Shown here piece by piece: positions 10,079-28,740 of a stretch of 32,000 nucleotides of DNA (its first letter is position 1; every line of letters begins with the position of its first letter). Source of the stretch: Candidatus Saccharimonadota bacterium (GTDB lineage: Bacteria > Patescibacteriota > Saccharimonadia > Saccharimonadales > Saccharimonadaceae); assembly GCA_002421785.1 (NCBI GenBank), contig DIRZ01000002.1, positions 150,001 to 182,000 of the forward strand. The letters are read 5' to 3'. The translations under genes were made by a program, and so were the position numbers. The notes under the pieces were generated by a model. The model was not told where the DNA came from. It saw nothing but the letters and a program-made list of their open reading frames with translations, and did no database searches.

Positions 10079-10088
10079 GTTGCTTGCA

Positions 10089-12339: not shown

Positions 12340-12363
12340 ATAGAATATCTTATCACTGGTCAA

Positions 12364-12600: not shown

Positions 12601-12615
12601 ATATCGAACAGAGAA

Positions 12616-13284: not shown

Positions 13285-13322
13285 ACATTTACATTATAGA
13301 TATAGATGCTACAAATGAGACA

Positions 13323-15095: not shown

Positions 15096-15142
15096 TTATT
15101 CTATTAGTATACCGTGTGACAGGCATGTAATTACAGCATAAG

Positions 15143-15667
15143 CTATATAGATGAGACTAAGTGCACGTTTTCGCAAATCACCTGGTCTCCTATGGTGTAT
15201 ACAAAGAAACTGATATTGAGTTTTGACTCTGGATTATCTTCAAAGTATTCGTTAATAGCTTCAAATGCTAAAGCCGCCGCTTCCTTTTTCGGGTAGCGAT
15301 GTATTCCTGCTGAGAGCAGTGGAAATGCAATAGATACAATGTTGAGCTCCTCGGCTCTACGGAGCGACTCCCAGTAACAGCTTTTGAGAATGTCGGCTTC
15401 ATTTCCATGATGATCGCCATAGATAGGGGTTGCAGTATGAACTATGTATTTAGCTGATAATCTAAAGCCTGGAGTCACTACCGCATCGCCGAACGCACAG
15501 TAATTAATCTCATCACATACTTTAGTAAGCTCTTCATCTCCGGCCGCTTCAAAGATTTGCCCGCACAATCCACCACCACCCTTAAGTGCAATATTCGCAG
15601 GATTTACGATAGCATCACCGTCAAAATCTAATATGTCTCCTTGAATGATTTTTATATGCTGATTCAT
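15143..15667 (-). CDS. stand-alone macrodomain protein (MacroD/YmdB-like ADP-ribose hydrolase)
   Basis: IIQGDILDFDGDAIVNPANIALKGGGGLCGQIFEAAG and IVHTATPIY are classic macrodomain motifs. Confidence 0.85.
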   Translation of the reverse strand: MNQHIKIIQGDILDFDGDAIVNPANIALKGGGGLCGQIFEAAGDEELTKVCDEINYCAFGDAVVTPGFRLSAKYIVHTATPIYGDHHGNEADILKSCYWESLRRAEELNIVSIAFPLLSAGIHRYPKKEAAALAFEAINEYFEDNPESKLNISFFVYTIGDQVICENVHLVSSI

Positions 15668-15701
15668 AGTGCTTGCTACCTTAGCTTACATTCACAAAAT
15701 G

Positions 15702-16895
15702 TCATAGTATTATGTCGGTTCCGTCGGGTGCTTTAAGCTTCCACGGACCACTATCACTCTTTGGCGTATCTGGTTTCTTCATTTTCCCAGCCTTTATATC
15801 CCGCTCTACAAGCTTTTTCAGATCTTCTTCGCGCTCGTAGGCTCGCAGGCGTCCATTTAAATACCCGAGTCGATACGAAATACCATTACTCATGAGTCGC
15901 CAGTTGGTATCCTGAAGCGCTTTTTCTACTGTTTTCTTAAGGGTCTTTTCACTATCTCGGTCGTCACGATTACTCTTTCCATCAAGGCAGTTAAATCCCA
16001 CGAATACGTCTTTACCCATTTCTGGCTTATCTAAACTGAATTCGATATAACCGGCCTTTTCAAGCGCAGGAGCAAGTATAGTATTCAACTCTGCGATCTT
16101 TGGCTTTTTCATTTCTTTCATGGCATCGTAAAGATATTTATTGTCCTCCTTCTCTTTGAACTCTTTACCAAGTCTAGCCATTTCTTGGAAATCGTGGCGC
16201 ATTTTGAATAGGCGGTCGCGGAACTCCGTATCATGCAGGCAATAATGCGCACGATCCTTGTCAAAATCAGGATCGGGTTTTTTCTCCTTGCTCATTAAGT
16301 CCATTTTATCCTTGAAGCTATGTTTACATGATGCGCACGTATATGTGATCGTGATAGCTTTTTTGGTTTTCGTTGTTTTATGTGTTTCTTCCGACTGGCA
16401 TTTTGGACATACAGTTGGTTTAACTTTCCACACCGTGCAATCTTCCCAAAAGGCGCTGTTCTTATCGCAATGAGGACAGCGCAACATGAATAACACTTCT
16501 TCTGAATCATCAATTTCGTATGTTTCACCGCGATGCATCAACGATTTGTCGATAATTCGGAGTCCCTGTTTGCCACAATGATGACACGAAGGCTCTTCTG
16601 CAAGTCGTGCTGATGATATCTGCTCGTCCTTTGCCCGATCCCTAGCAATCCATTCCTGGATTTTGCTGTCTCGTTTTTCATAGCGATCCAGCAGCTCATT
16701 GCCCACGGTTTCCATATAGAAAACATTCAGGAGAAAGGCGTTGCCAGGTTTATCAACCTTTTCTCCTTTAGGGAGTTTGCTTTCGAATTCAGAGTAAAAG
16801 TTATCGTAATGGCTCATACCGCGACGAGCAGACTCAACGGTTAGTCGATCATAAAGATTCTCGTAGTGCTGGCGTTCTTTGAGATGAGTGTACAT
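15702..16895 (-). CDS. 397-aa protein with four CxxC pairs (two predicted zinc ribbons)
   Basis: CHHCGKQG..CPHCDKNS..CPKCQSE..CASCKHS in the central region. RBS AGAGGG precedes ATG 16895. First gene after the tRNA pair. Confidence 0.65.
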   Translation of the reverse strand: MYTHLKERQHYENLYDRLTVESARRGMSHYDNFYSEFESKLPKGEKVDKPGNAFLLNVFYMETVGNELLDRYEKRDSKIQEWIARDRAKDEQISSARLAEEPSCHHCGKQGLRIIDKSLMHRGETYEIDDSEEVLFMLRCPHCDKNSAFWEDCTVWKVKPTVCPKCQSEETHKTTKTKKAITITYTCASCKHSFKDKMDLMSKEKKPDPDFDKDRAHYCLHDTEFRDRLFKMRHDFQEMARLGKEFKEKEDNKYLYDAMKEMKKPKIAELNTILAPALEKAGYIEFSLDKPEMGKDVFVGFNCLDGKSNRDDRDSEKTLKKTVEKALQDTNWRLMSNGISYRLGYLNGRLRAYEREEDLKKLVERDIKAGKMKKPDTPKSDSGPWKLKAPDGTDIIL

Positions 16896-16933
16896 GAATC
16901 CCTCTTGTTAGAAATTCGGACATAATCCGGAGC

Positions 16934-17018
16934 TCTAAGGAGGGGGATTCGAACCCCCGGAGGCTTTCACCTCGCCTGCCCCTCAGACAGGTGCCATCGA
17001 CCACTCGGCCACCCTTCC
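16934..17018 (-). tRNA. type-II tRNA-Leu(GAG) with mismatched top of the acceptor stem
   Basis: Minus strand: GGAAGGG TG GCC..GGC, anticodon arm CCTGT-CTGAGGG-GCAGG, long variable arm GAGG-TGAAAG-CCTC, T arm GGGGG-TTCGAAT-CCCCC, then TCCTTAG-A. Pairs 1:72 (G/G) and 2:71 (G/A) do not form. No encoded CCA. Confidence 0.65.
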
Positions 17019-17021
17019 TTC

Positions 17022-17136
17022 TGGTACCCAGTGCGAGATTCGAACTCGCACGCATTACTGCACGGGATTACTCAGCTCACGAACATGTTCCCGAGCTTAG
17101 GTAGTCCCGCGTGTCTACCAATTTCACCAACTGGGC
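17022..17136 (-). tRNA. type-II (Leu-like) tRNA gene with a ~30-nt hairpin-forming insertion in the anticodon loop; anticodon not assignable
   Basis: GCCCAGT TG GTG-AAATTGGTAGA-CAC G CGGGA [37 nt] TCCCG TGCAGTAATGCGT GCGAG-TTCGAAT-CTCGC ACTGGGT A CCA. Acceptor, D, variable and T arms are canonical. A TACAAT -10 box lies at 17145-17150, 8 nt upstream of the 5' end. Confidence 0.6.
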
Positions 17137-17174
17137 ATATATTTATTGTACCGCTTGTTGTAGCCATTAAAAAG

Positions 17175-18245
17175 TCAGCTGACCCCCTCTACGAATCGCA
17201 ACCGCCTAGCACCCAATGCGCTCTGCTCAGACTCGGTATACTTCGCAATCATGGTATTGATCGCCGTTCGTATAACAAAATCATTTGTACGCATGATATC
17301 GGTCTTATCAACACTATAGATTGGGGCGCTCGTTAGGTCGTCGTTGAGCAACAGCTTCCGCACTGCCTTTTGCGCCGCCGCGCTATTAGTGATGGTCACA
17401 TTCGGCAAAATCCTAATGACTTGGTCGATGCGAGATAGCACGGAGGGCCCCGCCACCAAGCACTGCATATCATTTCCGACACTCGCCGCAAAGTACGCGA
17501 GATCGACTACGACCTGCCGCCACTCCGAGTCCGGTCCGATGGTTTGCAAATCCATGGCGACCGCCTTTATATCCGGATGTCTTTGCAAAAATCGCAAGTG
17601 TTCGTCTATATCCTTTCGCCCGTGCCAAGTAATATGAGGGATTGCCGGTAATCCTGCTTCGATCATTTCTTTGTACATGATCATGCTCTTCTTTTGATTG
17701 ATTAACCTTTCGGCGTGCGGTTGATTCGCCCAGACCGAGTAGTCAGGGGGCACAATTGCATGTAGATCCAGTTTCTTGAACTCATCGATAATCCGGTGCC
17801 GCTCCGCAGCGGGCCATGCACGTTCGAGCAATGCATCATTTGCAAAACCCAACAGGATAACTTTAGTTCTCTTAGAAACCCCAAGCCGCGCATGAATGTC
17901 GGTGGCGACTTGCAATCGCTTAGCTGAAACAACGTCACTCAAACTTACAGCGACATATTTAGGAGTATATTCCCTGAATAGCTTGCCGCTGCCGTTAGGG
18001 ATAGTCGGAACATATCGCGGGAGACTGGGGTTGATCGGATTAGTAATTGCTATATCATCAAAATCAACACCGTTCACCTCGGCTAGTCGAAGAGCAAAGT
18101 CGTCAGAATCCTCCCCAATAAGGTCATACCCACGAGCGTTAATTCCTGCGGCGTTACAATGAAAATCATCATCTTCAAGCCGGTCACCAAACGGGCAATC
18201 CGATCGTCGTACATCTGTAATTTTAAGCTGCTGATGGTGTTTCAT
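17175..18245 (-). CDS. hypothetical ~356-aa protein
   Basis: Long ORF, start ATG 18245 (MKHHQQL) or GTG 18260. I cannot place it in a family. A faint TIM-barrel / transglycosylase-like impression is too weak to call. Confidence 0.6.
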   Translation of the reverse strand: MKHHQQLKITDVRRSDCPFGDRLEDDDFHCNAAGINARGYDLIGEDSDDFALRLAEVNGVDFDDIAITNPINPSLPRYVPTIPNGSGKLFREYTPKYVAVSLSDVVSAKRLQVATDIHARLGVSKRTKVILLGFANDALLERAWPAAERHRIIDEFKKLDLHAIVPPDYSVWANQPHAERLINQKKSMIMYKEMIEAGLPAIPHITWHGRKDIDEHLRFLQRHPDIKAVAMDLQTIGPDSEWRQVVVDLAYFAASVGNDMQCLVAGPSVLSRIDQVIRILPNVTITNSAAAQKAVRKLLLNDDLTSAPIYSVDKTDIMRTNDFVIRTAINTMIAKYTESEQSALGARRLRFVEGVS

Positions 18246-18636
18246 GACCGAGCACCCCACCCTTCACGATGGCGCGCAGAGTGTTTGCGCCGACACTCTG
18301 CACTTGACCAGAGTACACGTAGCCCATGGCCATACATTCTAATAGACGGTCTTTTTGCTTACCTGCATATAACGAAAACCGCCTATTGCCGACAAAGACG
18401 CCGATCTCGCCAGCATCCACCCTTGCTAGAGTGACGGTGTCGCCACGTGTCGCCCTTGGGTCATTACCTGCAGCATAATTAACCTTCAGCTCCAAGGAGA
18501 AGAGACATGCGTTTACTGACGTCTCGCTGCCCGGTGTTTCATCGCCAAACGATGAAACACCACCACCATCGCCAGCGTCATGCCTAACCCTTGGTTTTTG
18601 GACATTCTTCTGTGTTGTTCCTGAACCCCGACCCAT
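18223..18636 (-). CDS. hypothetical 137-aa protein
   Basis: ORF begins 2 nt after the DUF2188 gene and overlaps the next gene's start. Gly/charged-rich N-terminus. Confidence 0.5.
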   Translation of the reverse strand: MGRGSGTTQKNVQKPRVRHDAGDGGGVSSFGDETPGSETSVNACLFSLELKVNYAAGNDPRATRGDTVTLARVDAGEIGVFVGNRRFSLYAGKQKDRLLECMAMGYVYSGQVQSVGANTLRAIVKGGVLGHETPSAA

Positions 18637-18638
18637 GG

Positions 18639-18887
18639 CTAGTGCCTCGTATCTTTTGGAGGATTAGGATCATTTGCTGGCGCAATTGTGTCACGATCAC
18701 GGATCTGTCCGTTGGGTCGATGGATTGTGATCTCACCACCTGCACCACCGTTGCGTGCCGACTGTTTTGCTGCAGATTCTGCTTCTGCTTGTGTGTTCGT
18801 TACACCCGATGCGCGATGCGCACCAGGAAGTTTGTATTGCCATTGACCGTCCGGTCGCCGAGTTATGTGATAGTTGCGTTGAGTCAT
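18639..18887 (-). CDS. DUF2188-like small protein
   Basis: YHITRRPDGQWQYKLPGAHRASGVTNTQAEAESAAKQSA..GEITIHRPNGQIRDRDT matches the DUF2188 pattern as I remember it. Confidence 0.65.
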   Translation of the reverse strand: MTQRNYHITRRPDGQWQYKLPGAHRASGVTNTQAEAESAAKQSARNGGAGGEITIHRPNGQIRDRDTIAPANDPNPPKDTRH

Positions 18888-19006
18888 ACTAACCCCTTTC
18901 TAACGCTTATTTTTTAAACGTGACCTTCGTTCCCCTCGTCACATACAGCTAATCAATCCTTTTTGTGTTGAACAACTGCTACATTATTAGGATATTCCTT
19001 TTTCTC

Positions 19007-19042
19007 TTGCAAGTCAACATAAATAGGATTATAATATCCTAT
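19007..19042 (+). promoter_or_regulatory. sigma70-type promoter TTGCAA-N17-TATAAT with inverted repeat ATAGGAT/ATCCTAT bracketing the -10 box
   Basis: -35 at 19007-19012 and -10 at 19030-19035. Repeat arms at 19023-19029 and 19036-19042. A third TAGGATAT copy lies at 18988-18995. RBS AAGGAAAGGA precedes ATG 19061. Confidence 0.6.
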
Positions 19043-19060
19043 ATAAGGAAAGGAACAGAT

Positions 19061-19402
19061 ATGGAAGTAACCAAGTATGTAGGTGAAAAAATTAAAGAGT
19101 TCCGTACATCATACGGTGGAGGAAAGGGATTATCGCAAGAAGAATTAGGAGAGAAACTGAAAATTGCACCAAATACGGTGTCACGCTGGGAAAACGCTAC
19201 TTATAAACCCAAGTTAGTGGACCTGGACAAGCTCGCCAATTTCTTCAAGGTGCCAATTTCGGCATTCTTCCCTGCGGGCGAAGCATCAGCACCGCTAGAG
19301 GGTCTTATGCGCGCAGCCGAAGGCCTCGCCCAAGATGATATTGATGCACTCACGCAATTTGCCCAGATTAAAAGCGCACAAAATCAACTAAAGAAAAAGT
19401 AG
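19061..19402 (+). CDS. XRE-family HTH transcriptional regulator
   Basis: GLSQEELGEKLKIAPNTVSRWENATYKPKLVDLDKLANFF is a typical Cro/C1-type HTH. I chose ATG 19061 (good RBS) over the track start at 18965. Confidence 0.85.
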   Translation: MEVTKYVGEKIKEFRTSYGGGKGLSQEELGEKLKIAPNTVSRWENATYKPKLVDLDKLANFFKVPISAFFPAGEASAPLEGLMRAAEGLAQDDIDALTQFAQIKSAQNQLKKK

Positions 19403-19408
19403 ATTGAC

Positions 19409-20053
19409 ATGGAGGATCGTACCGAATATTACCGAAAAATGACCGATCTGGCACAAGAACAGCGAAGTCTCTTCGGGATACAAGGTGCAAAAATCAGTCG
19501 AACCGATTTTCGTAAGATCTACAAACACTACGGGATAGAACTTAGCCAGTGGCCGTTGCCAAACATGAGTGGCAAGCCACTCAAGAAGCTTCGTGGTGTA
19601 TACTTTCCTGACCTTCATGGCAAGCCGTCCGTTCTGGCGGCACGACTTCCTGAAGAACCGTATATCTTTACCCTCGCTCATGAGCTAAAGCACCACCTTA
19701 TGGATCGAGACTCCGCCGGAGCATTCTGCCTCTCCGAAGTAAGGGATGAGGTAAAGGAGATTGGCGCAGAGGTCTTCGCTGCAGAGTTCATATACCCTAC
19801 GAAGTTGTTTTTCGATGATCTCAATAAGCTCGGAGTAACAAAGGGCCAATGCACAGCTCGAGACTTGGTTGTGCTGAAACACCAAACGAACACCAGTCTG
19901 AGCTATGCATCGTTAGCAAAACGCGCAACTCGCACCAAATGTGCTACCGAACCTTTACCGACTTCAGGGTGGAAAAAAATTGAAATCCAAATTTACGGTG
20001 AGCCAGATTATGTACGCATTCAGCGGTACCGAAAGTTACAGAAAAGCCATTGA
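19409..20053 (+). CDS. ImmA/IrrE-family zinc metallopeptidase
   Basis: HEXXH motif in FTLAHELKHHLMD. Lies immediately downstream of the XRE gene, the classic ImmR/ImmA arrangement. Confidence 0.8.
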   Translation: MEDRTEYYRKMTDLAQEQRSLFGIQGAKISRTDFRKIYKHYGIELSQWPLPNMSGKPLKKLRGVYFPDLHGKPSVLAARLPEEPYIFTLAHELKHHLMDRDSAGAFCLSEVRDEVKEIGAEVFAAEFIYPTKLFFDDLNKLGVTKGQCTARDLVVLKHQTNTSLSYASLAKRATRTKCATEPLPTSGWKKIEIQIYGEPDYVRIQRYRKLQKSH

Positions 20054-20121
20054 TTATGTTATCCTATTATGTTTAAATTATTTTAAGGTCGTTACCGCAT
20101 GTAACTAGCTAAGACGTGAAG

Positions 20122-20190
20122 AAACGTTTTGCGTGCCGATCAAATAGCAACAATGCTGTTTGACTGACATACAAAACGTTTTTTGTTTTG
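20122..20190 (+). terminator. long hairpin (10-bp arms AAACGTTTTG / CAAAACGTTT, 40-nt loop) followed by a T-rich run
   Basis: Arms at 20122-20131 and 20172-20181, followed by ttttgttttg. Lies between the ImmA gene and ParB-methylase 2. May be a terminator or a regulatory structure. Confidence 0.35.
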
Positions 20191-20224
20191 TCGCATACAG
20201 CTCCAAAGAAAGGAGTGTCTTGTC

Positions 20225-21562
20225 ATGCCGAAAGCCAAACAAGACCTACAAATACAAACCGTAAAAATTAGCGATCTAAACCCAGCGCCGTACAATCCAC
20301 GCAAGTGGAGTGAGGAAGCAATCGCACAACTGACCGATAGTGTCCGACAGTTCGGTATGGTCGATCCACTACTTGTCAACGGCGCCGAGGGTCGCCGAAA
20401 CATTGTTATCGGCGGCCATTTCCGCCTCAAAGTAGCAAAAGATCTCGGCATTACCGAGTTACCTGTCGTATATGTAGCTATCCCAGAGCTTGAGCGAGAG
20501 AAAGAGCTTAACCTTCGTCTCAATAAAAATCTTGGCGAATGGGATATTGATCTACTAAAGGAGTTTGACGAAGCCATTCTTTCCGATATCGGCTTCAGTA
20601 GTGAAGACCTGGATGGTGTATTTGAGGTCGATGATACACCCGAAAACTTTGACCTCAAGAAAGAGCTTGAGAGGCTTGATATTCAAGTAGAAGCAAAGAA
20701 GGGTGATATTTACCAGCTTGGTAATTCTCGCCTCATGGTCGGTGATAGCACTATACCCGAGGACTTTACTAAGCTAATGAATGGTGAACTAGGAGACCTT
20801 TGCCTATGCGATCCTCCGTATCGTCTCAGCTATATGAAAGGTGGTATTCGACATGGCGAGCCTGTGACGGGCTTCGGAGCGAAACGTAACCGTCGCTACC
20901 TCGAAACTGAGGAGCTATCAGACGACTTTACTACTAAATGGATGCAAAATGTCGCTAACCACGCAAAGGAAGATTTCAGTATCATTGTGTACGAGGCGTG
21001 GCATAACCTCCGGGAGATTTGGTCATGCCTCGAGGCGCACTGGAAGGTAAAAAATATGCTTGTTTGGCACTTGCCTAACCGTCACCAAGGATTTGCTGCA
21101 AAGTATAAGTTCTTCAGTAAATACGATATTGCCATGGTCGGTGCTAGCGGTACGGTTGAATACAACCACGGAGAGGAACCAGATGGCTTACAAGAAGAGT
21201 ATGAGGCTGCCCTTTATGCTATATCTGGCAAACCCCAATGGGAGGGATATAAAAAGGGTAAGGACAAGAGGTTTATGCCAACTGACCATATCGAGTTTAA
21301 TGCCGATGACGAAAAACACTCAGGCCAAAACATTATATTCGGAACCAAACCGATCGAGATCCTACTCCCCTACATAAAGGTACTAACTAGGCGCGGAGAT
21401 CTAGTTGTAGAACCTTTTTGTGGTAGCGGCTCGACTCTAATTGCTGCGACTAAATTGCATCGTCGATGCTACGTCATGGAGAAGTCTCCAGTATATGCAG
21501 AAGTTGCCATGAAGCGATGGGAAAAATTAACTGGCCAGAAGAGGGTGAAAATAGATGAATAA
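20225..21562 (+). CDS. ParB-like N-terminal domain fused to a beta-class DNA methyltransferase (copy 2)
   Basis: RBS AAAGGAG lies 8 nt before ATG 20225, so I reject the track start at 20183. Motifs NPRKWSE..FGMVDPLLV..IVIGGHFRLK, canonical motif IV LCDPPY, motif I VVEPFCGSGSTLIA. Confidence 0.88.
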   Translation: MPKAKQDLQIQTVKISDLNPAPYNPRKWSEEAIAQLTDSVRQFGMVDPLLVNGAEGRRNIVIGGHFRLKVAKDLGITELPVVYVAIPELEREKELNLRLNKNLGEWDIDLLKEFDEAILSDIGFSSEDLDGVFEVDDTPENFDLKKELERLDIQVEAKKGDIYQLGNSRLMVGDSTIPEDFTKLMNGELGDLCLCDPPYRLSYMKGGIRHGEPVTGFGAKRNRRYLETEELSDDFTTKWMQNVANHAKEDFSIIVYEAWHNLREIWSCLEAHWKVKNMLVWHLPNRHQGFAAKYKFFSKYDIAMVGASGTVEYNHGEEPDGLQEEYEAALYAISGKPQWEGYKKGKDKRFMPTDHIEFNADDEKHSGQNIIFGTKPIEILLPYIKVLTRRGDLVVEPFCGSGSTLIAATKLHRRCYVMEKSPVYAEVAMKRWEKLTGQKRVKIDE

Positions 21563-22007
21563 GAAATGGAAAGGCAAACGTGCTCATATCCTTAGAGAAT
21601 TTCAGGAAAACCCGCTTATAACAAGAGCATGTCAAAAGATAGGAATTGCTCGCTCCACTTACTACAGGTGGTATAACTACGACGCAGACTTTCGACAAGA
21701 TGTAGACCATGCGCAGAATAGAGGACGCGAAAAACTTACCGACTTCGCTGAGTCAAAACTGCTCGAGAATATCAGGAATAACCAGTACGCATCAATTGCG
21801 TACTGGTTGAGTCACAATACAACGCGCTACCGAACATATCCAAAAAATGTTTACACTGACGAAATAAGACAACTTCGTATGGCAGAAAAAGCACTTGAGG
21901 AGATAGGAGGATTGCTCGCCAAAGACGCAGGCTATGAATCTTTGAAGCGCCTTGTTGATAATGAAATAAATAGAATAAATCACGAGTCACCCTTGAGGAA
22001 TAGCTGA
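21555..22007 (+). CDS. small HTH protein resembling a phage small terminase or regulator (copy 2)
   Basis: ILREFQENPLITRACQKIGIARSTYYRWYNYDADFRQDVDHAQ is homologous to the 8127-8741 product. Overlaps the methylase end by 8 nt. Confidence 0.7.
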   Translation: MNKKWKGKRAHILREFQENPLITRACQKIGIARSTYYRWYNYDADFRQDVDHAQNRGREKLTDFAESKLLENIRNNQYASIAYWLSHNTTRYRTYPKNVYTDEIRQLRMAEKALEEIGGLLAKDAGYESLKRLVDNEINRINHESPLRNS

Positions 22008-22015
22008 TATAATAA

Positions 22016-22156
22016 GACTGTCTAGGATTCAAACAATTAGTTAACGCAAAGTGTTTTGCGTAGTTATGCCGTAAAATGGGCAGCTACGTAAAAAAGAATA
22101 GGCATAACTGCTTGTTTGGGTCCTAGACAGTCCAGCGTGGCTGTCCTTTTTATTTT
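22016..22156 (+). ncRNA. structured intergenic element: 12-bp closing helix, two internal hairpins, and an overlapping terminator-like hairpin
   Basis: P1 GACTGTCTAGGA (22016-22027) pairs with TCCTAGACAGTC (22121-22132). P2 ACGCAAA/TTTGCGT (22044-22050 / 22055-22061). P3 AGTTATGCC/GGCATAACT (22062-22070 / 22101-22109). GACAG/CTGTC (22126-22130 / 22141-22145) followed by TTTTTATTTT. Confidence 0.45.
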
Positions 22157-22206
22157 ATATGGACTTCTTCGCTGAGTTGCGACATTACTTTGGTGAAGGA
22201 GAAGAT

Positions 22207-22797
22207 ATGCAAGAAAATAATCAACCGAATCAAGTGCACAATCATCAGCTACAACCTGTGAAGAAAAGAGGTTGGTATAAAACCTGGTGGGGAATCCTAC
22301 TAATTATACTAGGTGCCATTACTGCGATACCTGTAATAATGCTATTCATCGTTGTAGGGATCGTAATGTTTACACAAGACAACGATACAAATCCGTCTAC
22401 CAAACAGAAAGATGAAACTAGTTTGAGCCAGTCCGTTGACGAATCAAAGATTCCATATGAAGGAGTTGAGATATGGAAAATTGGTGATAACGGCCTCGGC
22501 ACAACCATCGTTATTGATCCTAAATACGACAATAGCGAGTCACTCAAGCGGCTCGGATCGGAGCTCAATAATGAAAACCAGTCGAGACAATTTGCGATGA
22601 ATTACATCTACACAGACAAGACTTCAGCCTTATATAGAAAAGAAAGCTTCTGCTCACCTGGACAGCCTGCATCAATTCGTCAGCACAAAAAAAGCTGGGC
22701 AGCTCTCTACCAAAAAGATAATTCAGGCGCAAGAATGACGATATTTACAGATCGCTCTTGCGACCCGAATGCCGCTTCAGAAACTATCGAATATTAA
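22207..22797 (+). CDS. single-pass membrane protein (variable slot of module 2)
   Basis: Strong RBS GAAGGAG precedes ATG 22207. TM segment WWGILLIILGAITAIPVIMLFIVVGIVMF followed by a soluble domain. No motif. Confidence 0.65.
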   Translation: MQENNQPNQVHNHQLQPVKKRGWYKTWWGILLIILGAITAIPVIMLFIVVGIVMFTQDNDTNPSTKQKDETSLSQSVDESKIPYEGVEIWKIGDNGLGTTIVIDPKYDNSESLKRLGSELNNENQSRQFAMNYIYTDKTSALYRKESFCSPGQPASIRQHKKSWAALYQKDNSGARMTIFTDRSCDPNAASETIEY

Positions 22798-22800
22798 GGC

Positions 22801-22828
22801 TAGACTTTGTAAACCGTTGCGGTATTGT
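22801..22828 (+). promoter_or_regulatory. conserved promoter-like motif TAGACT-N16-TATTGT (site 3, recombinase 2)
   Basis: CTAGACTTtgtaaaccgttGCGGTATTGTTGTCCTTGC. ATG 22842 lies 13 nt after the -10-like box. Confidence 0.45.
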
Positions 22829-22841
22829 TGTCCTTGCAGTC

Positions 22842-24125
22842 ATGCTGGACAACAATACTCAATCACTAAAATATTGCCTGTACGCTCGGAAAAGCTCCGA
22901 GAGCGACGAGCGTCAGGCAATGAGTATTGATTCACAATTAGCGGAAATGAGATCCCTCGCTGAAAACGAGGGATTAGATGTTGTGTGCGAACTACAAGAG
23001 AGCCATTCAGCAAAAGACTCTGGAAAGCGTCCTGTATACAACAAGATGTTAGCCGGTATCGCTAATGGCGAATATAACGCGATTCTCACCTGGGCACCAG
23101 ATCGTTTGAGTCGAAACGCCGGAGACCTTGGGTCTGTTGTCGACCTTATGGACCAGCATAAGCTACTCCACATACGTACATATTCCCAAACATTCACCAA
23201 TAGTCCAAATGAGAAATTCCTCCTCATGATTCTCTGCTCACAAGCCAAGCTTGAAAACGATAACAAAAGCATCAATGTAAAACGCGGCATACGCACAAAA
23301 TGCGAGATGGGCTGGCGACCTGGTGTTGCTCCACTTGGCTACATGAACCGAGCATTCGGAGGTATCAACGATATCATTATCGATCCCGAACGTGCCGACC
23401 TCATCAGAGAAGCATTCCATAAGGCAGGATACGAACGATGGAGCGGGCGCAGAATTAAAGCTTGGCTCGACGAAAAAGGATTTACTAATCGATCAGGAAA
23501 ACCGATAAGTATCAGTCAAGTGCTAGTGATACTAAACACCCCCTTTTACTACGGAAGGTTCCAGTATCCAGAGGCACCTGATGCACCGTGGTATGATGGC
23601 GCACATAAACCACTCATCTCCAAAGAATTATTTGACCAGGTACAAGAGACTCGTGGCGTTAACAAGGGTGTATGGAGGTCAAAAACCTTTGCCTTTCGTG
23701 GTTTGCTCAAATGCGGACAATGCGGTGCTGACATTACCGCACAGGATAAATTCAAAACACTAAAAAAGTCCGGTGAGGTAAAGCGATTCGTCTACTATAA
23801 CTGTACGAGACGGAAAGATCCGAATTGCACTGAGAAATATATAAACGAAGACAAGCTGTGCGAACTTTTGAAAGACTTTATTGAAACACATCATTCCGAA
23901 ATCAAGATCGGTGACAAATTGCGTGCAAAGGTAGATAAGCATATGTATGTCACCAACACTTTGCTCACCCATTACAATATCGATCGGGAGTTGAGTGACC
24001 CATTCGTAGAATACGCGAGATATGTGCTCATAAGTGGGACTGAGAACGAAAGAACAAGTTTAGCAGCTGGAATAGAGACAACCATCCAGATCAAGCATGG
24101 CATTCTCGAATTTTGGCCTAAGTAA
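22842..24125 (+). CDS. large serine recombinase (copy 2)
   Basis: MLDNNTQSLKYCLYARKSSESDERQAMSIDSQ.., LTWAPDRLSRN, zinc ribbon CGQCGAD..YYNCTRR..C. The N-terminal ~150 aa are nearly identical to copy 1 at protein level, while the DNA differs at many synonymous sites. Confidence 0.9.
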   Translation: MLDNNTQSLKYCLYARKSSESDERQAMSIDSQLAEMRSLAENEGLDVVCELQESHSAKDSGKRPVYNKMLAGIANGEYNAILTWAPDRLSRNAGDLGSVVDLMDQHKLLHIRTYSQTFTNSPNEKFLLMILCSQAKLENDNKSINVKRGIRTKCEMGWRPGVAPLGYMNRAFGGINDIIIDPERADLIREAFHKAGYERWSGRRIKAWLDEKGFTNRSGKPISISQVLVILNTPFYYGRFQYPEAPDAPWYDGAHKPLISKELFDQVQETRGVNKGVWRSKTFAFRGLLKCGQCGADITAQDKFKTLKKSGEVKRFVYYNCTRRKDPNCTEKYINEDKLCELLKDFIETHHSEIKIGDKLRAKVDKHMYVTNTLLTHYNIDRELSDPFVEYARYVLISGTENERTSLAAGIETTIQIKHGILEFWPK

Positions 24126-24693
24126 GATGAGCTGCGGCTAAAAGTACGGCAATAAGCGCGTCCGTACCTTTATCTGCAAGCCATTTAACAATATTTACTA
24201 TTCTTGGCTTATCTTTCGTTTCTTTTTTAAGCTCATCAAGCAGTTCCTGTACTTTCTCCTGTACCTCATGGTCATACTGAGAGAGATTTATAGTCTGAGT
24301 GATTTGCTGAACTTGCTGCTGACTAATTGTAAGGTTTAAGATAACTTTATCTTGCAAAGGTTTGACTGAACTCTCATTTGTCGAGCCAGGATCATATCCC
24401 CATGTTTCAAGTTCTTCTATTAAGGATTTTATAAACGCCTCTGAATTATCTAGCCCTTGATGATATGCTCGAGCATATCTTGCGCTATTGTCCTGCCCAC
24501 CAATAGTCATACCTGGCGAGAACCTTACGCGATCTGCTTTCTGTTTATATGAGTCACCCATACGTTCACAGGTTGACTTAACCGTATTCCACCAAGTGGT
24601 AAAAGTTGGCTCCCTATAGTCATTAAACTTTCTGAGTTCAGGTAACTGTTTGAGTTTCGCATTGAAAAAATCTATAAGCTTTTCAGTATTCAT
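24118..24693 (-). CDS. hypothetical 191-aa protein (convergent cargo of module 2)
   Basis: RBS GGAG precedes ATG 24693. Its stop overlaps the recombinase stop by 8 nt. No motif. Confidence 0.6.
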   Translation of the reverse strand: MNTEKLIDFFNAKLKQLPELRKFNDYREPTFTTWWNTVKSTCERMGDSYKQKADRVRFSPGMTIGGQDNSARYARAYHQGLDNSEAFIKSLIEELETWGYDPGSTNESSVKPLQDKVILNLTISQQQVQQITQTINLSQYDHEVQEKVQELLDELKKETKDKPRIVNIVKWLADKGTDALIAVLLAAAHLT

Positions 24694-24704
24694 ACTGACT
24701 CCAG

Positions 24705-24732
24705 TATATATCCTCGCCTACAGATAGGTCTA
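24705..24732 (-). promoter_or_regulatory. promoter-like TAGACC-N16-TATATA upstream of the 191-aa gene
   Basis: Minus strand reads CCTAGACCtatctgtaggcgaggaTATATAC. Same CTAGAC-type -35 as the three plus-strand sites. Confidence 0.4.
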
Positions 24733-24807
24733 GGAATCGGGTCGGCTTTTTGCCTGCTTGCTTTCCTGGAGCTTGACAGGTCGGTGTTAGAACTAAATTA
24801 CAGAGGT

Positions 24808-24840
24808 GAAAATGAAAGAACCGCCCTTTTGGACGGTTCC
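24808..24840 (-). terminator. terminator-like hairpin in module copy 2
   Basis: Minus strand reads GAACCGTCC-AAAA-GGGCGGTTC followed by TTTCATTTTC. Confidence 0.45.
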
Positions 24841-24942
24841 AACATTTTGTACCTTTTGAGCTCGACTCAAAATTCTTGCTTAAGTAAGGAGTTAAGGAGA
24901 GGCCGGTTACGGAACTCGGTCATCTATTTTAACTGCTTGCTC

Positions 24943-24977
24943 TGGCTCCGGCGACTGGATTCGAACCAGGCGCCTAT
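24943..24977 (-). pseudogene. displaced 3' fragment of a tRNA-Asn-like gene (variable loop, T arm, acceptor 3' strand, G73, CCA)
   Basis: Minus strand reads AGGCGCCTGG-TTCGAAT-CCAGT-CGCCGGA-G-CCA. The matching 5' strand TCCGGCG is absent upstream. Similar but not identical to the 3' half of the intact gene at 29007-29047. Confidence 0.75.
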
Positions 24978-25049
24978 ACCACCATTTTCCTGGTTCACCA
25001 TACTATAGCTTACATCTGCCATTAATCATAATAATCTGTGTATTACTGG

Positions 25050-25778
25050 CTAAAACAGGCTCAGCCAGTAATCTGACCATCGATAGAATAGCAACATAAA
25101 GATAACAGTATAAGTTATAACGATAAGCTCATACTTGTAGCTGAACAGTTTATTCAGTTTTTCGCCGAGGTTTATGTATTTGTGCCGTATGCAGTATGCG
25201 GTCACCATCCATAGCAGCGCGAACGTCACCAGCCACACCAGCATACAGTACAAGCATAATTTTCCGATTACAAAGACACCCTGGTAAAACAGCCACGTAC
25301 AGAATCCGGCGCCAAAGACGATGCCGCCGAGGAGCGTGCGCCACAAGGCCCTATGCAGTTTTACCGCCCCGGCAAGAATCGTCATGCCGGCTGCGAAAAC
25401 CGCGGTATAACCGAATATACCTATGAACGAATTGGCAAAGCCGAAAGCACTCGCCTGCGGGCTGGCGATGATGGGCGAACAGGCCACGATCGGACTCAAG
25501 CTGCAGCTTGGATCGTGAGCCGGCTGAGTCAGTATCTCTATCTTTTCGATGGATAGGATGATCGCCGCACTCACCCCAATGACAGCGAGAACCGTCATCC
25601 ATCGTGCCAATAAGATCTCCGGTTTCAGGTTCTGCCCGCGCTGGATAATCGCCGTCAGTAACACAAGAGCTACGACGGCGAGATATACATACTCTACTTT
25701 GCTACGAGCCACAAATACGGCCACAAACAAATAGACTATCGGCAAGAGAACAAAGTATTTACGTAGTAAAGTAATCAT
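25050..25778 (-). CDS. vitamin K epoxide reductase (VKOR) family membrane protein
   Basis: Polytopic membrane protein with loop cysteines CSLSPIVAC and the CxxC motif GKLCLYCMLVW. ATG 25778 lies 1 nt after the upstream stop. The track start at 25799 is an alternative. Confidence 0.8.
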   Translation of the reverse strand: MITLLRKYFVLLPIVYLFVAVFVARSKVEYVYLAVVALVLLTAIIQRGQNLKPEILLARWMTVLAVIGVSAAIILSIEKIEILTQPAHDPSCSLSPIVACSPIIASPQASAFGFANSFIGIFGYTAVFAAGMTILAGAVKLHRALWRTLLGGIVFGAGFCTWLFYQGVFVIGKLCLYCMLVWLVTFALLWMVTAYCIRHKYINLGEKLNKLFSYKYELIVITYTVIFMLLFYRWSDYWLSLF

Positions 25779-25779
25779 C

Positions 25780-26067
25780 TTAGAAATCGAATAGATCACC
25801 CAAAAAGGACTCTTTGCGCTTTTTGCGAGGGTACCCTTGGTCGTAGTTCACCGGCCGGCCATGTTTATCGTATTGTGGTGGGTAGCCGGAGTTCTGATAC
25901 GGCTCCGGCGCAGGTGATGACGTGGTCTGAGAGACCGCCCCCCGCTCAATGATCTTATCCAGCTCACCTCGGTCCAACCAGACACCACGGCACTTGGGAC
26001 AATAATCTATCTCGACGCCTTGGCGGTCAGTCATTACCAGTTCAGTATTGTCTATGGGGCATTGCAT
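25780..26067 (-). CDS. zinc-ribbon (TFIIB-type zf, COG3809-like) protein
   Basis: MQCPIDNTELV..IDYCPKCRGVWLDRGELDKII is the typical family signature, followed by a Pro/Gly/Tyr-rich tail. Confidence 0.8.
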   Translation of the reverse strand: MQCPIDNTELVMTDRQGVEIDYCPKCRGVWLDRGELDKIIERGAVSQTTSSPAPEPYQNSGYPPQYDKHGRPVNYDQGYPRKKRKESFLGDLFDF

Positions 26068-26079
26068 ATGTCATCTCCT

Positions 26080-27990
26080 TTACTTATTCACTATAGCAAC
26101 TTCATTGGCTCCGGCATTAAACAGACGCAGGCCGTTGAGGACGACCAGGACAGCCATAACCGCGTCTGCCGCCACGGCCAAGCTTAGACCGATCACCCCG
26201 GCGATGCCGAGTACCAGGATAACACCCTTGACTATGATTGATCCGTAGACATTCTGACGGACAACCCTGAAAGTTTGCTGGCCGACATCCAGTAGGTATG
26301 GAATAGTGCCTATAGCGTCATTCATCAGTGTTACGTCCGCCGTTTCTATCGCTACGTCCGAGCCGCCACCCCCCATGGCGATACCCACATCCGCTCGAGC
26401 CAAGCTCGGCGCGTCGTTCACACCATCGCCCACCATGGCTACTCGCTGATACCGGGCTTGCAGCTTGTCGATAAGTTCTGCTTTTTGCTCAGGCAGCAGT
26501 GCTCCGTACGCCTCGCTGATACCGACTTTTTCCGCGATATAATTCGCTGCCCGCTGATTATCTCCGGTCAGCATCACCGGCGTGACCCGTAGCTTATTCA
26601 GCGCGTCTATGACACCCTTTGAATCGTTACGCAATTCGTCGGTGATACCTATGATACCGATGACCTTTTTGCCCTCACTGACAAGCACGGCCGTCATCCC
26701 CATGCCTTCCAGTCGTTCCACTTCCGGCAATACATGTTCGCACGTCTCGGCGCTAACGCCGATATGCTGAAGATTGCCGATAGCGTGCTCCTTGTCGCCG
26801 CAGACCATACAATTGGCGTTGCCGCCACGACCGGCTACGTTTTTGAACTTGTCCATTTTGTGCGGTTTAATGCCCTTTTGTTTGGCATAATCTTCTATCG
26901 CCTTAGCTAGCGGATGCGAAGAGAATTTTTCAATTCCCGCAGCATCTCCTATGACGTCCTCTTCCGTAGCGTCATGCAGCAGCACTACTTCAGCCACCAC
27001 AGGGGTTCCGACGGTCAGTGTCTTTGTCTTGTCGAAAGCGATTGCTCTGGTCTTGCTCAAGACTTCCAGGAAACGGCCTCCCTTGATGAGCACACCCCTA
27101 CGCGATGCACCGCCGATTGCCGCCGCCACGGCGACAGGCGCCGATACCACTAGCGCATCCGGACAAGCGAGCACCAGCAGGATAAGTGCTTTTGTAAACC
27201 AGTCGCTGAACGGTTCGCCGAAAAAGACCGGCGGCACGACAGCTACCAGCAGGGCCAGCCCGATCGCTGCCGGTATATAATAACTCGCAAACTTATCCAA
27301 AAATTCCTGCATCTCTGGCCTGGATTTTTGAGCCTCAGAAATTAATGTGACAATTTTTTGCAGCGTACTGTTAGCGGCGGTTTTGGTGACTTTTACCTCC
27401 AGATAGCCGCTCTGGTTTAAGGTACCGGCGTAGACGGCTTCACCTTTATATTTCTCTTTTGGCACGCTCTCGCCGGTAATAGTCGCCTCGTCGACCGATG
27501 ACTCGCCGTCGACTACCACGCCGTCCAGCGGCACCATGTCACCGGGACGGACTTTGACTATTTCACCTTCCTTGACTTTCTCGACCGGCACTTCACGGCC
27601 ATCTTGTAAGCGGGCGATTTTCGGCGCGGATTTGAGAAGCGCCGCCACGGCCTTTTGCGAGCGGGCTTCGCCGAATTCCTCGAAGGCTTCAGCCAGTGCA
27701 AAGAAGAACATCACGGCAGCAGCCTCGGCGAATTGGCCAAGGTACAGCGCGCCAAGTGCGGCAATCGTTACCAGCAGGCTGATGGATATTTTACGTTTCA
27801 ATAGTTTTCGGACAGCCGATATTGCAACAGGAGTACCTCCCGCAGCCAGCGACACCAGGTACAGTATTTCCGCCCCGGGCAACTTAAACAGGCTGCACGC
27901 CAAACCAGCAACAAAGCTGACGGCGGCAGTAGCGGTCAAAGCCTTGTTCATGCGGTTTGATTCGTTTTCTTCGGCATGGTTATCGCTCAT
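26080..27990 (-). CDS. P1B-type heavy-metal-translocating ATPase with atypical motifs and no N-terminal metal-binding domain
   Basis: TGES (ITGESVP), MLTGDN and MVGDGVNDAPSLA are present. The phosphorylation motif reads FDKTKTLT instead of DKTGT. The TM metal motif reads ACPDAL instead of CPC/CPH/SPC. Confidence 0.85.
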   Translation of the reverse strand: MSDNHAEENESNRMNKALTATAAVSFVAGLACSLFKLPGAEILYLVSLAAGGTPVAISAVRKLLKRKISISLLVTIAALGALYLGQFAEAAAVMFFFALAEAFEEFGEARSQKAVAALLKSAPKIARLQDGREVPVEKVKEGEIVKVRPGDMVPLDGVVVDGESSVDEATITGESVPKEKYKGEAVYAGTLNQSGYLEVKVTKTAANSTLQKIVTLISEAQKSRPEMQEFLDKFASYYIPAAIGLALLVAVVPPVFFGEPFSDWFTKALILLVLACPDALVVSAPVAVAAAIGGASRRGVLIKGGRFLEVLSKTRAIAFDKTKTLTVGTPVVAEVVLLHDATEEDVIGDAAGIEKFSSHPLAKAIEDYAKQKGIKPHKMDKFKNVAGRGGNANCMVCGDKEHAIGNLQHIGVSAETCEHVLPEVERLEGMGMTAVLVSEGKKVIGIIGITDELRNDSKGVIDALNKLRVTPVMLTGDNQRAANYIAEKVGISEAYGALLPEQKAELIDKLQARYQRVAMVGDGVNDAPSLARADVGIAMGGGGSDVAIETADVTLMNDAIGTIPYLLDVGQQTFRVVRQNVYGSIIVKGVILVLGIAGVIGLSLAVAADAVMAVLVVLNGLRLFNAGANEVAIVNK

Positions 27991-27994
27991 GAAA

Positions 27995-28279
27995 TTAGTT
28001 GCCTCCCCCTGTCAAAAACTGCAGCGGATTTGCGATAACCTGTTGCCACAGGGCATTAATGAAATCAAGTGCATAATTCCATAGTGATTTGATGATATTA
28101 CCGACACTTTGCCCAATCCCGCTATCGGCCTGTCCGAGCAAGGCGCCGATGACAGCTATGATGATCGAGCCAATTATCAAAAGTATAACAAGCAGTACAA
28201 ACCCGACGAGCAGAGCTGCTATAACCAGTTTTTTCTTATTTATACGGCTTAATTTATCAAATTTGTATCCGTGGCTCAT
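27995..28279 (-). CDS. 94-aa membrane protein
   Basis: One long hydrophobic segment (LVIAALLVGFVLLVILLIIGSIIIAVIGALL). Tightly spaced between the ArsR and ATPase genes. Confidence 0.55.
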   Translation of the reverse strand: MSHGYKFDKLSRINKKKLVIAALLVGFVLLVILLIIGSIIIAVIGALLGQADSGIGQSVGNIIKSLWNYALDFINALWQQVIANPLQFLTGGGN

Positions 28280-28296
28280 AAGTATACCTTTCTTTT

Positions 28297-28623
28297 TTAT
28301 TTATGTTCGCCGCTCTTGATGTGATCGGCTTGTGTAAACGCGTGTTCGATGAACTGAAGCACATGATCATTCTCAGCACTATAGAATATTTTCGTACCGG
28401 CACGTCTGACGCGCACCATGTGAGACATGCGTAGTTTTGCGAGATGCTGTGAGACTACAGCAGGTTTTACCCCTACGTCTTCTGCAAGCTCACCCACCGA
28501 ATGCTCACCGTGCAAGAGTGCCCATAATATTTTTAAGCGCGTCGGGTCGCTCAGCAGTTTAAATATCCCGGTAGCTATATCAAGGCGTGCATTTGATAAT
28601 TCTTTGCGTATATGCGCAGACAT
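28297..28623 (-). CDS. ArsR/SmtB-family metalloregulator
   Basis: LLSDPTRLKILWALLHGEHSVGELAEDVGVKPAVVSQHLAKLR is a winged-HTH signature. His/Asp/Glu-rich C-terminus (NDHVLQFIEHAFTQADH). I chose ATG 28623 because the predicted promoter lies inside the longer track ORF. Confidence 0.85.
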   Translation of the reverse strand: MSAHIRKELSNARLDIATGIFKLLSDPTRLKILWALLHGEHSVGELAEDVGVKPAVVSQHLAKLRMSHMVRVRRAGTKIFYSAENDHVLQFIEHAFTQADHIKSGEHK

Positions 28624-28629
28624 GCATAT

Positions 28630-28659
28630 ACTATAGCAAAATGCTCCTCTTATTCGCAA
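28630..28659 (-). promoter_or_regulatory. TTGCGA-N18-TATAGT promoter, giving a leaderless or near-leaderless arsR-like mRNA
   Basis: Minus strand reads TTGCGAataagaggagcattttgcTATAGTatatgcATG. Confidence 0.4.
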
Positions 28660-28740
28660 GGTTAGTATTGTCATTGGCACATCCTATCAGGACAGATGAG
28701 CAGAACTGAACCCTTATTAGGTACTAATAAGCGTGTAGTA

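Follow-up and report, generated by a model that had tools for sequence, protein, structure and literature searches.

The locus described here raises the question of whether a repressor/metallopeptidase gene pair inside an integrated element controls the mobility of that element or serves another set of genes. The window, by which we mean the whole stretch of 32,000 nucleotides (nt) analyzed, is from Candidatus Saccharimonadota contig DIRZ01000002.1 (GCA_002421785.1; 150,001 to 182,000 of the forward strand), and it holds two related integrative modules, module 1 and module 2, next to a tRNA-Asn(GUU) gene. Module 2 codes for a large serine recombinase (LSR) together with an XRE-family helix-turn-helix (HTH) repressor and a Peptidase_M78 (M78) zinc metallopeptidase, a pair that an earlier note on this DNA had equated with the ImmR/ImmA induction switch of ICEBs1-type elements. 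To judge from the protein classes and gene order, the pair is most likely a DNA-damage switch of the CapH/CapP, ImmR/ImmA, or DdrO/IrrE type. We favor, with a probability of roughly 60%, a damage-responsive repressor/protease cassette that is carried as island cargo and controls a divergent, leftward operon beginning with a DUF2188 gene. Features are listed in Table 1. Related loci compared with the window carry L-numbers, and ~100 were used for placing boundaries; nearly all are from metagenome-assembled genomes of Candidatus Saccharibacteria, and the more distant ones are from other groups of the Candidate Phyla Radiation (CPR).

The repressor/metallopeptidase pair and the operon it faces

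The two proteins are what the earlier note took them for, a genuine repressor and metallopeptidase of the ImmA/IrrE class: the zinc ligands are invariant, and an AlphaFold2 model of the M78 protein (predicted local distance difference test [pLDDT] score, 92) has IrrE/PprI as its best PDB match, followed by XRE-M78 fusion regulators. H91, E92, H95, E117, and E121 do not vary among 47 homologues, and C107 hardly does. The structural match to IrrE/PprI has a Foldseek E value of 3e-6 with 22 to 23% identity over 176 aligned columns, and phmmer against PDB sequences returns weak matches only (IrrE, E value of 0.044); the PADLOC matches are to PDC-M69B, RmrA, and CapP. C107 is 12 residues past the second histidine (H95), compared with 13 for the cysteine switch of Thauera CapP, and the candidate cysteine-switch loop is modeled at a pLDDT of <50. 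The two genes are adjacent and co-directional with a 6-nt gap, and the repressor starts at the ATG used by public gene calls and by all homologues, the longer open reading frame (ORF) of the earlier note beginning with a GTG at 18965.

The intergenic region upstream of the pair contains face-to-face promoter candidates, as found with a promoter scan, and ~100 nt of it are nearly invariant among relatives whose proteins are 71 to 87% identical. The operator half-site is confined to this region, and its occurrence elsewhere in the window is not beyond chance; near the ParB-methyltransferase (ParB-MTase) gene, the RNA element, and the recombinase gene of module 2, there are likewise no operator copies beyond chance.

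The constant partner of the pair is the operon on the other side of this region. In eight of eight distinct genomic contexts the pair faces a divergent operon, in which DUF2188 is the first gene in the window (Pfam E value of 3e-19) and in six of the seven others, with a SAVED gene taking that position in L107; in two of the contexts, the inspected flanks have no recombinase backbone. The loci with DUF2188 divergent from the pair are the window, L102, L097, L099, and L103 to L106. The whole DUF2188-operon block is conserved with the pair in L097 and L102; the leftward operon of L102 extends into a Shedu (SduA_C) gene, and in L097, the ParB-MTase-LSR backbone is deleted to a C-terminal recombinase remnant, the DUF4417-p129-DUF2188/XRE-M78 block being intact beside tRNA-Asn. 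More distant pairs (~49% identical) face a DUF2188 (L103 to L106) or SAVED (L107) operon, with no LSR or ParB-MTase gene in the inspected flanks. Because the pair survives loss of the backbone and recurs without it, we conclude that it is partnered with the divergent operon and not with the recombinase. In two loci (L040, 4326 to 5497, and L054, 107 to 1109), DUF2188 is divergent from the gene for an S24 LexA-like repressor instead of from an XRE/M78 pair. Damage-responsive repressors seem to have DUF2188 as a recurring target.

The pair was previously assigned to the module, and this is correct insofar as it lies inside the att boundaries and recurs upstream of a ParB-MTase gene in a relative. 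In that lineage (L099, L100, and L101), the pair (M78, 71% identical; XRE, 73%) is directly upstream of genes for a ParB-MTase (76%), an HTH protein (63%), and an LSR (83%), and the same left-arm motif bounds the element. The pair is nonetheless not part of the family backbone, since no homologue of it is present at any of 49 LSR-family loci.

CapH/CapP-like pairs divergent from DUF2188 operons have been described (Lau et al. 2022, bioRxiv 10.1101/2022.04.27.489752, citing Burroughs & Aravind 2020), DUF2188 being one of the associated operon classes along with CBASS, DISARM, DUF3892, and ubiquitin-like operons, and CapH/CapP, ImmR/ImmA, and DdrO/IrrE form one mechanistic family (Lau et al. 2022). 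The window has the same arrangement, with the pair upstream of and on the strand opposite to an operon of one of these classes. The DUF4417 protein, the first enzyme of appreciable size encoded by this operon, is modeled as a TIM barrel like those of tRNA-guanine transglycosylase (TGT) and DpdA (pLDDT of 82, Foldseek E value of ~1e-6, template-modeling [TM] score of ~0.5); among PDB entries, it is nearest to tRNA-guanine transglycosylases and to DpdA, a DNA preQ0 insertase. DpdA works with a ParB-like partner, DpdB, and phage-enriched fusions to ParB folds have been reported both for DUF4417 and for N6_N4 methylase domains. The model, with the reported phage ParB-DUF4417 fusions, hints at DUF4417 as a putative DNA base-exchange enzyme.

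In the mechanism that we propose, dimers of the XRE repressor would occupy conserved AGGATATT-type sites over the divergent promoters. DNA damage, in the form of single-stranded DNA or RecA, would activate the M78 metallopeptidase, which would cleave the repressor. This would derepress the leftward operon (DUF2188, the 137-aa ORF, and DUF4417), possibly with transcription reading on through the left arm, and also the autoregulated rightward transcript of XRE and M78, which may extend through the ParB-MTase and HTH genes. The island would have arrived through LSR-mediated recombination between its element site and the final 7 nt of tRNA-Asn(GUU), GGAGCCA, of which the CCA is part.

We note several points that weigh against this reading. 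The metallopeptidase is not a canonical CapP, as it is 214 aa long, with residues 110 to 213 modeled as helices only and with no GAF-like α/β domain. The pair is also co-directional with the ParB-MTase and HTH genes, 171 nt upstream of them with no terminator detected between, and the layout in L099 is the same; it is possible that the pair controls backbone genes and hence mobility. The DUF4417 fold match is moderate at a TM score of ~0.5, and we infer repressor cleavage, the damage signal, and the responding genes by homology.

Boundaries of module 2 and the array at tRNA-Asn

Delimited by comparison with related loci, module 2 is one 12.4-kb integrative island (12576 to 24949) with a 7-nt core, GGAGCCA, at each end, corresponding to the 3' end of tRNA-Asn. 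The span of 18888 to 24977 given previously is only its rightward half; the island is about twice as long, and the pair, formerly placed at the module edge, is in the middle of the element once the left end is at 12576. The left arm, AGTTCGTGACCTGTAnGnGGAGCCA, is conserved at element ends and resembles a tRNA T-arm. It is present in the window as a single copy (12600 to 12576) joined directly to the module 1 leader, and the same motif terminates related elements in L040, L041, L031, L042, and L099, with either native flank (L041 and L040) or another leader (the window and L026) beyond it. The module 1 homology of L041 and L050 ends at 12582-12583, and L041, L044, and L050 align only to 12582-12599. 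In L041, which is of the module 1 type, the arm is followed by the same terminator-bearing sequence that follows the pseudo-tRNA in L006 and L008; in L040, whose LSR is 92% identical to that of module 2, the p590 homologue immediately precedes the arm, and beyond the arm are a hairpin and a chromosomal gene.

The element site comprises this left arm and a right "leader" beginning GAGCAAGCAG. In a metagenome scan, at least 12 different tRNA-Asn genes that are intact have the module 1 leader (GACTCAGCAGGTAAATACCC...) abutting their GGAGCCA, and one intact tRNA-Asn gene (L084) has a leader-2-type sequence there. At tRNA-Asn/leader junctions, the sequence is host specific through ...|GGAGCCA| and element specific thereafter, which argues that the shared core is the 7-nt tRNA 3' end including the CCA. 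In ~20 related loci, an opposite-strand tRNA-Asn lies within 0.2 to 6 kb after the LSR gene, with tRNA-Gln in other CPR groups. The pseudo-tRNA fragment adjoining module 2 shares only the core with it and stays with the ATPase cassette in L004, L006, L007, and L008, which diverge directly after the CCA. Module 2 thus has an attL and an attR with a short common core; sites without either module (L006 and L008) and with single elements (L040 and L041) are also present among the relatives.

Excision of module 2 is predicted to yield the attP junction ...GTGACCTGTACGGGGAGCCA|GAGCAAGCAGTTAAAATAG and the repaired target ...CCAGTCGCCGGAGCCA|GACTCAGCAGGTAAATACC. JGI metagenome contigs do not contain this attP junction in its exact form, nor do IMG/VR contigs contain a degenerate version of it, a weak negative, as such junctions are seldom assembled; the junction suggested by the earlier note (~18.9-20.2 kb to ~24.98 kb) has misplaced ends. 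No convincing dyad symmetry is present in the reconstructed attP. The tRNA-Leu(GAG) gene inside the island was considered as an att site or left border and rejected, as it is missing in relatives and the conserved arm motif is at 12576-12600.

The target tRNA-Asn contains a 234-nt group I intron (Rfam Intron_gpI, 75 bits) between anticodon positions 35 and 36, and, once spliced, it matches the tRNA-Asn of CP011211, which has no intron, at 100% identity. The intron is also present in L067 and the L004/L006/L008 lineages, and the same tRNA is intron-less in most related Saccharibacteria; ARAGORN in its default mode fails to call the split gene. Other intron-containing tRNAs called in the ARAGORN intron mode are artifacts in which neighboring tRNAs are fused in some loci, and among those calls we accept only the tRNA-Asn introns in the window and in L067.

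A tandem array extends from this gene in the order metal-ATPase cassette, module 2, module 1. A ~190-nt repeat is present in three copies (28850-29040, comprising the tRNA 3' exon and downstream sequence, 24786-24976, and 12358-12555), and the junctions are tRNA/leader A at 29007, pseudo-tRNA/leader 2 at 24943, and module 2 arm/leader 1 at 12576. This order fits successive insertions at the tRNA end, by which module 1 is the earliest arrival, followed by module 2 and then by the recombinase-less ArsR-ATPase-Zn-ribbon-VKOR cassette. Arm-plus-leader junctions also occur in L026, and multiunit arrays occur in L003, L040, and L099. Over their first 18 nt, the leaders are similar to the native downstream sequence, with a match at 11 of 18 positions for leader 1 as read from alignments, and the resemblance suggests that the tRNA::leader junction is reusable, such that islands accumulate in tandem. 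Every leader has an intrinsic terminator (24817-24840 in module 2), which would substitute for the terminator lost by the tRNA upon integration. Each leader also has two copies of a GACCnnGTTCCnnGACC-like motif ~180 nt apart, on either side of the terminator hairpin; a repeat finder locates copies at 12358-12375, 12538-12555, 24905-24922, and 28969-28986, and in leaders 2 and A, the second copy was found by eye. These motifs may be protein-binding sites.

The island family is widespread in Saccharibacteria and other CPR groups, with a conserved backbone of ParB-MTase, TerS-like HTH protein, cargo, and LSR, and metagenome contigs match the window at 99.9 to 100% identity. Contigs from ERR700187, ERR700193, and SRR943316-21 code for proteins of the window, and the DNA of at least one of them is 100% identical. 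By LSR identity, the closest relatives of module 2 are L040 (92%) and L099 (83%). Module-1-type elements with proteins 98 to 100% identical are present at tRNA-Asn of clearly different hosts, in which the tRNA sequences differ and a flanking LexA-like protein is only 48% identical, a pattern that indicates recent horizontal transfer. Presence/absence variation of the module, which the earlier note had predicted, is evident: L006 lacks both modules, with a chromosomal flank 96.3% identical to the window and a tRNA and cassette 99.9 to 100% identical, and L003, L004, L007, and L008 have other DNA beyond the cassette. We did not find a description of the ParB-MTase/TerS-like/LSR island family in literature searches. 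Mobile elements of Saccharibacteria and the CPR are barely characterized, and the base-pair-level att sites given here are for a widespread LSR island family; the tRNA-Asn CCA-end target and defined arms are the information needed for a recombinase-based integration tool in these bacteria.

Recombinase-less units are also present. The cassette nearest the tRNA (24943-29013; ArsR, a 94-aa protein, P-type ATPase, Zn-ribbon, and VKOR) has GGAGCCA cores at both ends, with a family-type leader on one side and a genuine-looking tRNA-Asn 3' fragment on the other. An identical 636-aa ATPase is found in at least five different downstream contexts, and in both L028 and L031, an element with a recombinase has this cassette as cargo in its right arm. 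The cassette may be mobilized in trans. In L003 (4074-11812) and L099 (1935-3601), there are stacked recombinase-less islands and mini-islands of 0.5 to 7 kb, each ending in the left-arm motif, with cargo including a NUDIX gene, a glyoxalase gene, and a Panacea/MMPL set.

Gene content, structured RNA, and rival explanations

Module 2 has eight leftward genes (p222, p590, Macro, Zn-ribbon protein, tRNA-Leu(GAG), DUF4417, p137, and DUF2188), six rightward genes from XRE to the LSR, and the leftward p191 (Table 1). The genes named previously (XRE, M78, ParB-MTase, HTH, and serine recombinase) are all present and intact-looking by Pfam. The LSR has the three expected domains (Pfam E values of 3.7e-20, 5.9e-14, and 5.1e-10), and its family spans 45 related genome loci. 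The ParB-MTase and HTH genes are adjacent in ~25 related loci, and the HTH proteins match TerS families (Pfam Sf6_terminase, 34 bits for the module 1 protein; PHROG TerS, E value of 3.5e-5 for that of module 2). Other genes are more variable: the 196-aa membrane protein is only 27 to 36% identical in L027 and L040, tRNA-Leu(GAG) is missing at the equivalent position in L040, L036, L043, and L099, and p590 has only five homologues among 5.8 billion proteins, too few for a useful model. The Zn-ribbon, Macro, and p590 genes are syntenic upstream of ParB-MTase in L040, L036, and L043. Split ParB-MTase and Macro genes in sister JGI contigs (99.9% identical, with 6 to 14 gap openings) are not taken as decay; the gap openings point to indel errors, and another assembly is 100% identical to the window.

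Table 1. Positions of features of module 2 and its integration site in the window
Feature	Position	Strand	Details and source
XRE-family HTH repressor, 113 aa	19061-19402	+	Pfam HTH_3 E 1.8e-12; PHROG repressor families
Peptidase_M78 (ImmA/IrrE/CapP-class) Zn metallopeptidase, 214 aa	19409-20053	+	Pfam; HELKH residues 91-95 (DNA 19679-19693)
Divergent promoter/operator region	18888-19060	.	173 nt; P_xre -35 TTGCAA 19007-19012, -10 TATAAT 19030-19035
Candidate operator sites	18988-18998; 19024-19041		TAGGATATTCC (first); near-palindrome TAGGATTATAATATCCTA (second), overlapping P_xre -10
Leftward operon facing the switch	17175-18887	-	DUF2188 18639-18887; 137-aa ORF 18223-18636; DUF4417 17175-18245 (Pfam)
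Left end of module 2 (attR)	12576-12600	-	Element-side arm AGTTCGTGACCTGTACGG and core GGAGCCA 12576-12582; module 1 leader directly adjoins
Right end of module 2 (attL)	24694-24949	-	Leader with intrinsic terminator 24817-24840 and core GGAGCCA 24943-24949
Pseudo-tRNA-Asn 3' fragment	24943-24976	-	Distal end of ATPase cassette; only core 24943-24949 common to module 2
Integration target tRNA-Asn(GUU)	29007-29315	-	Exons 29282-29315 and 29007-29047; group I intron 29048-29281
Left-arm cargo	12616-16895	-	222-aa ORF 12616-13284; 590-aa ORF 13323-15095; Macro 15143-15667; 397-aa zinc-ribbon 15702-16895 (Pfam, NCBIfam)
tRNA-Leu(GAG) inside island	16934-17018	-	ARAGORN, Rfam; between DUF4417 and Zn-ribbon gene
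ParB_N + N6_N4_Mtase methyltransferase	20225-21562	+	Pfam
TerS-like HTH protein, 150 aa	21555-22007	+	Pfam, PHROG
Conserved structured RNA candidate, ~160 nt	22005-22165	+	Own -10 box, 20-bp outer helix, inner hairpins, intrinsic terminator 22126-22145 and T run
Membrane-anchored 196-aa protein, variable cargo	22207-22797	+	ORF translation with hydrophobic segment
Large serine recombinase (LSR, SR2), 427 aa	22842-24125	+	Resolvase + Recombinase + Zn_ribbon_recom; catalytic motif YARKS
191-aa ORF, right arm	24118-24693	-	Homologues 67-72% identical at same position in L040, L067, L099

Module 1 has the same backbone (6791-11378), with recombinases SR1 and SR2 73% identical, ParB-MTases 63%, and HTH proteins 49% over the first 92 aa. 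As previously noted, it has no XRE/M78 pair, and a DUF499 cassette (DUF499 at 3299-6412, minus strand, with DUF3780) is in the equivalent position directly upstream of ParB-MTase, as identified by Pfam. The left arm of module 1 (window positions 1-6412, minus strand; ~10 kb further left in L075) codes for a DUF499-DUF3780-DUF1156-PLD/SNF2 helicase set, with DUF1156 running off the window start, and the set looks like defense-type genes; no left-arm motif for module 1 is present in the 10 kb past DUF3780. A 35-nt direct repeat (77% identical; 8735-8769 and 10046-10080, plus strand) brackets the p100-DUF4268 cargo between the HTH and recombinase genes of module 1, which suggests that this cargo is exchanged as a cassette.

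Between the HTH and recombinase genes of module 2 is a new structured RNA (22005-22165) supported by covariation across loci. It is 78 to 94% identical at the nucleotide level in 15 related islands, compared with only 27 to 63% for the flanking proteins, and it has an invariant GGGCAGCTACG and an invariant terminator. Over 15 loci, 87.6% of cells are paired, against 28 to 38% with the partners slid, and 16 pairs are changed on both sides; frequent G-U pairs place the RNA on the plus strand. There is no matching Rfam family. By a covariance model, 16 elements of the module 2 type have the RNA upstream of their LSR gene; another five copies, which are weaker, are on the strand opposite the recombinase gene in their own loci, and module 1 has none. 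Variable cargo genes follow the element. In the RNAalifold model, the 3' half of the terminator is paired with the invariant stretch, a pairing on which covariation has no bearing as the stretch does not vary, and the model suggests that the RNA may act by attenuation. Its strong terminator (22126-22145) separates the XRE-M78-ParB-MTase-HTH genes from the recombinase gene.

This arrangement bears on the proposal that the pair is an ICEBs1-type ImmR/ImmA induction switch, through which repressor cleavage would lead to excision of module 2 and then to transfer, an explanation that we regard as tentative and rather unlikely. The pair does lie inside a bona fide recombinase-bounded island that varies in its presence at the locus, and it is directly upstream of co-directional genes for ParB-MTase and the HTH protein, a TerS-like protein that might serve as a directionality factor, in two lineages 71 to 73% identical. 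Moreover, no terminator is detected before 22126, such that the XRE to HTH genes may form one transcript, and in L040 a different damage-responsive repressor (S24) is in the same region. However, the recombinase gene lies behind the strong terminator and a separate, promoter-bearing RNA element, most family members have no such pair, and the pair outlives the backbone deletion in L097 and accompanies a divergent operon (DUF2188 in L103 to L106, SAVED in L107) in contigs showing no recombinase backbone. The gene content is also not ICEBs1-like, in that no conjugation, relaxase, type IV secretion system, coupling-protein, replication, or excisionase genes are recognized within 12576-24949 with Pfam, PHROG, and NCBIfam, and the leftward operon contains no excision or transfer families. 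The description of module 2 as an inducible mobile element thus holds in that it is an integrative element, stacked beside a relative, with the pair within its att boundaries; its inducible excision would be putative, the pair being tied to the DUF2188 operon and no excision junction being found in JGI or IMG/VR contigs.

No candidate recombination directionality factor was identified in module 2, and naming the TerS-like HTH protein as one is a guess; DUF2188 was rejected for this role, as it is carried by only ~6 family loci. Phage satellites such as phage-inducible chromosomal islands (PICIs) and PICI-like elements (PLEs) are 10- to 18-kb elements that have an integrase, a repressor, and a TerS-like gene for redirecting packaging and that a helper phage mobilizes. 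In size, recombinase, and repressor, the island fits this type, and no primase/replicase or capsid-remodeling genes were found in module 2, nor is a helper phage known. A broader interpretation, which we consider doubtful, is that ParB-MTase/TerS-like/LSR islands are a CPR-wide, satellite-like defense class that would reuse the tRNA::leader junction, with the RNA at 22005-22165 gating cargo and recombinase as a terminator/antiterminator and the XRE/M78 pair coupling damage to mobilization and to a DpdA-like DUF4417. If so, the DpdA-like role would depend on the TGT/DpdA-type fold of the model.

A weak NCBIfam match to "spr1629 family repressor/antitoxin" (E value of 7.6e-6, far below the cutoff) might indicate that the pair affects only its own expression, as a relic or a self-contained regulator of the toxin-antitoxin kind. 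This is very unlikely; the active-site residues and the promoter/operator region are conserved, and the divergent operon is present in all eight contexts, with DUF2188 first in seven. Least likely is the earlier proposal that the modules differ in autonomy as helper and satellite, with the switch in the window present only in module 2: the left arms are nearly identical and the leaders similar, which suggests that each recombinase might recognize both elements, but each module has its own closely related full-length recombinase, ParB-MTase, and HTH protein, transfer or capsid genes are in neither, module-1-type elements are alone at tRNA-Asn in many hosts with proteins 98 to 100% identical (L041 and L080) and so spread without module 2, and it is the ATPase cassette and, in L003 and L099, the mini-islands that truly have no recombinase.

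Comparison with known systems

The proposed control of the divergent DUF2188 operon by a damage-responsive cassette is closest in arrangement to CapH/CapP, with an HTH repressor gene adjoining an M78 gene, both upstream of and divergent from an operon in which DUF2188 is first. The peptidase has a PADLOC match to CapP and a conserved cysteine 12 residues past the HExxH motif, near the cysteine-switch position; an internal cysteine-switch loop is present in ~33% of CapP proteins (Lau et al. 2022). It differs in its length of 214 aa and helical modeled C-terminal half, whereas CapP has three domains (peptidase, HTH-like linker, and GAF), and the module 2 cassette differs in being within an LSR island, co-directional with the backbone, and in facing a 137-aa ORF and DUF4417 that are not a known defense system. 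The link between CapH/CapP and DUF2188 is extended here to CPR islands.

ImmR/ImmA of ICEBs1 and phi105 share the protein classes and the proposed logic, by which a cognate metallopeptidase cleaves the repressor, and they too are in an integrated element with divergent promoters and the integrase gene on the same strand; such a pair within an integrative element is ordinary biology. Module 2 differs in having no conjugation or excisionase genes, in its serine recombinase behind a terminator rather than a tyrosine integrase, and in the absence of the pair from most members of the island family. DdrO/IrrE (PprI) of Deinococcus gives the best structural match to the M78 model and has the same zinc-ligand pattern, but IrrE, which governs a chromosomal regulon for the radiation response, has a GAF-like domain at its C terminus.

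Among LSR elements (phiC31, Bxb1, the A118 prophages, SPbeta, Vibrio PLE, and SCCmec), module 2 shares the three-domain recombinase, its gene beside one att site, and a short core, and like Vibrio PLE, which borrows a directionality factor from its helper phage, it encodes no recognizable one. In contrast, it targets a tRNA 3' end, which is usual for tyrosine integrases, its arms mimic the tRNA and downstream flank, and its family shows recurrent tandem accretion in CPR hosts. Tandem accretion at one att site is also seen with ICESt1/ICESt3 and the cis-mobilizable elements of Streptococcus thermophilus, which use tyrosine integrases, and there too arrays of related units are split by hybrid att sites and include recombinase-less units possibly mobilized in trans. 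Module 2 therefore adds a new member to known kinds: it is an integrative island of the LSR type with a switch of the CapH/CapP or ImmR/ImmA class.

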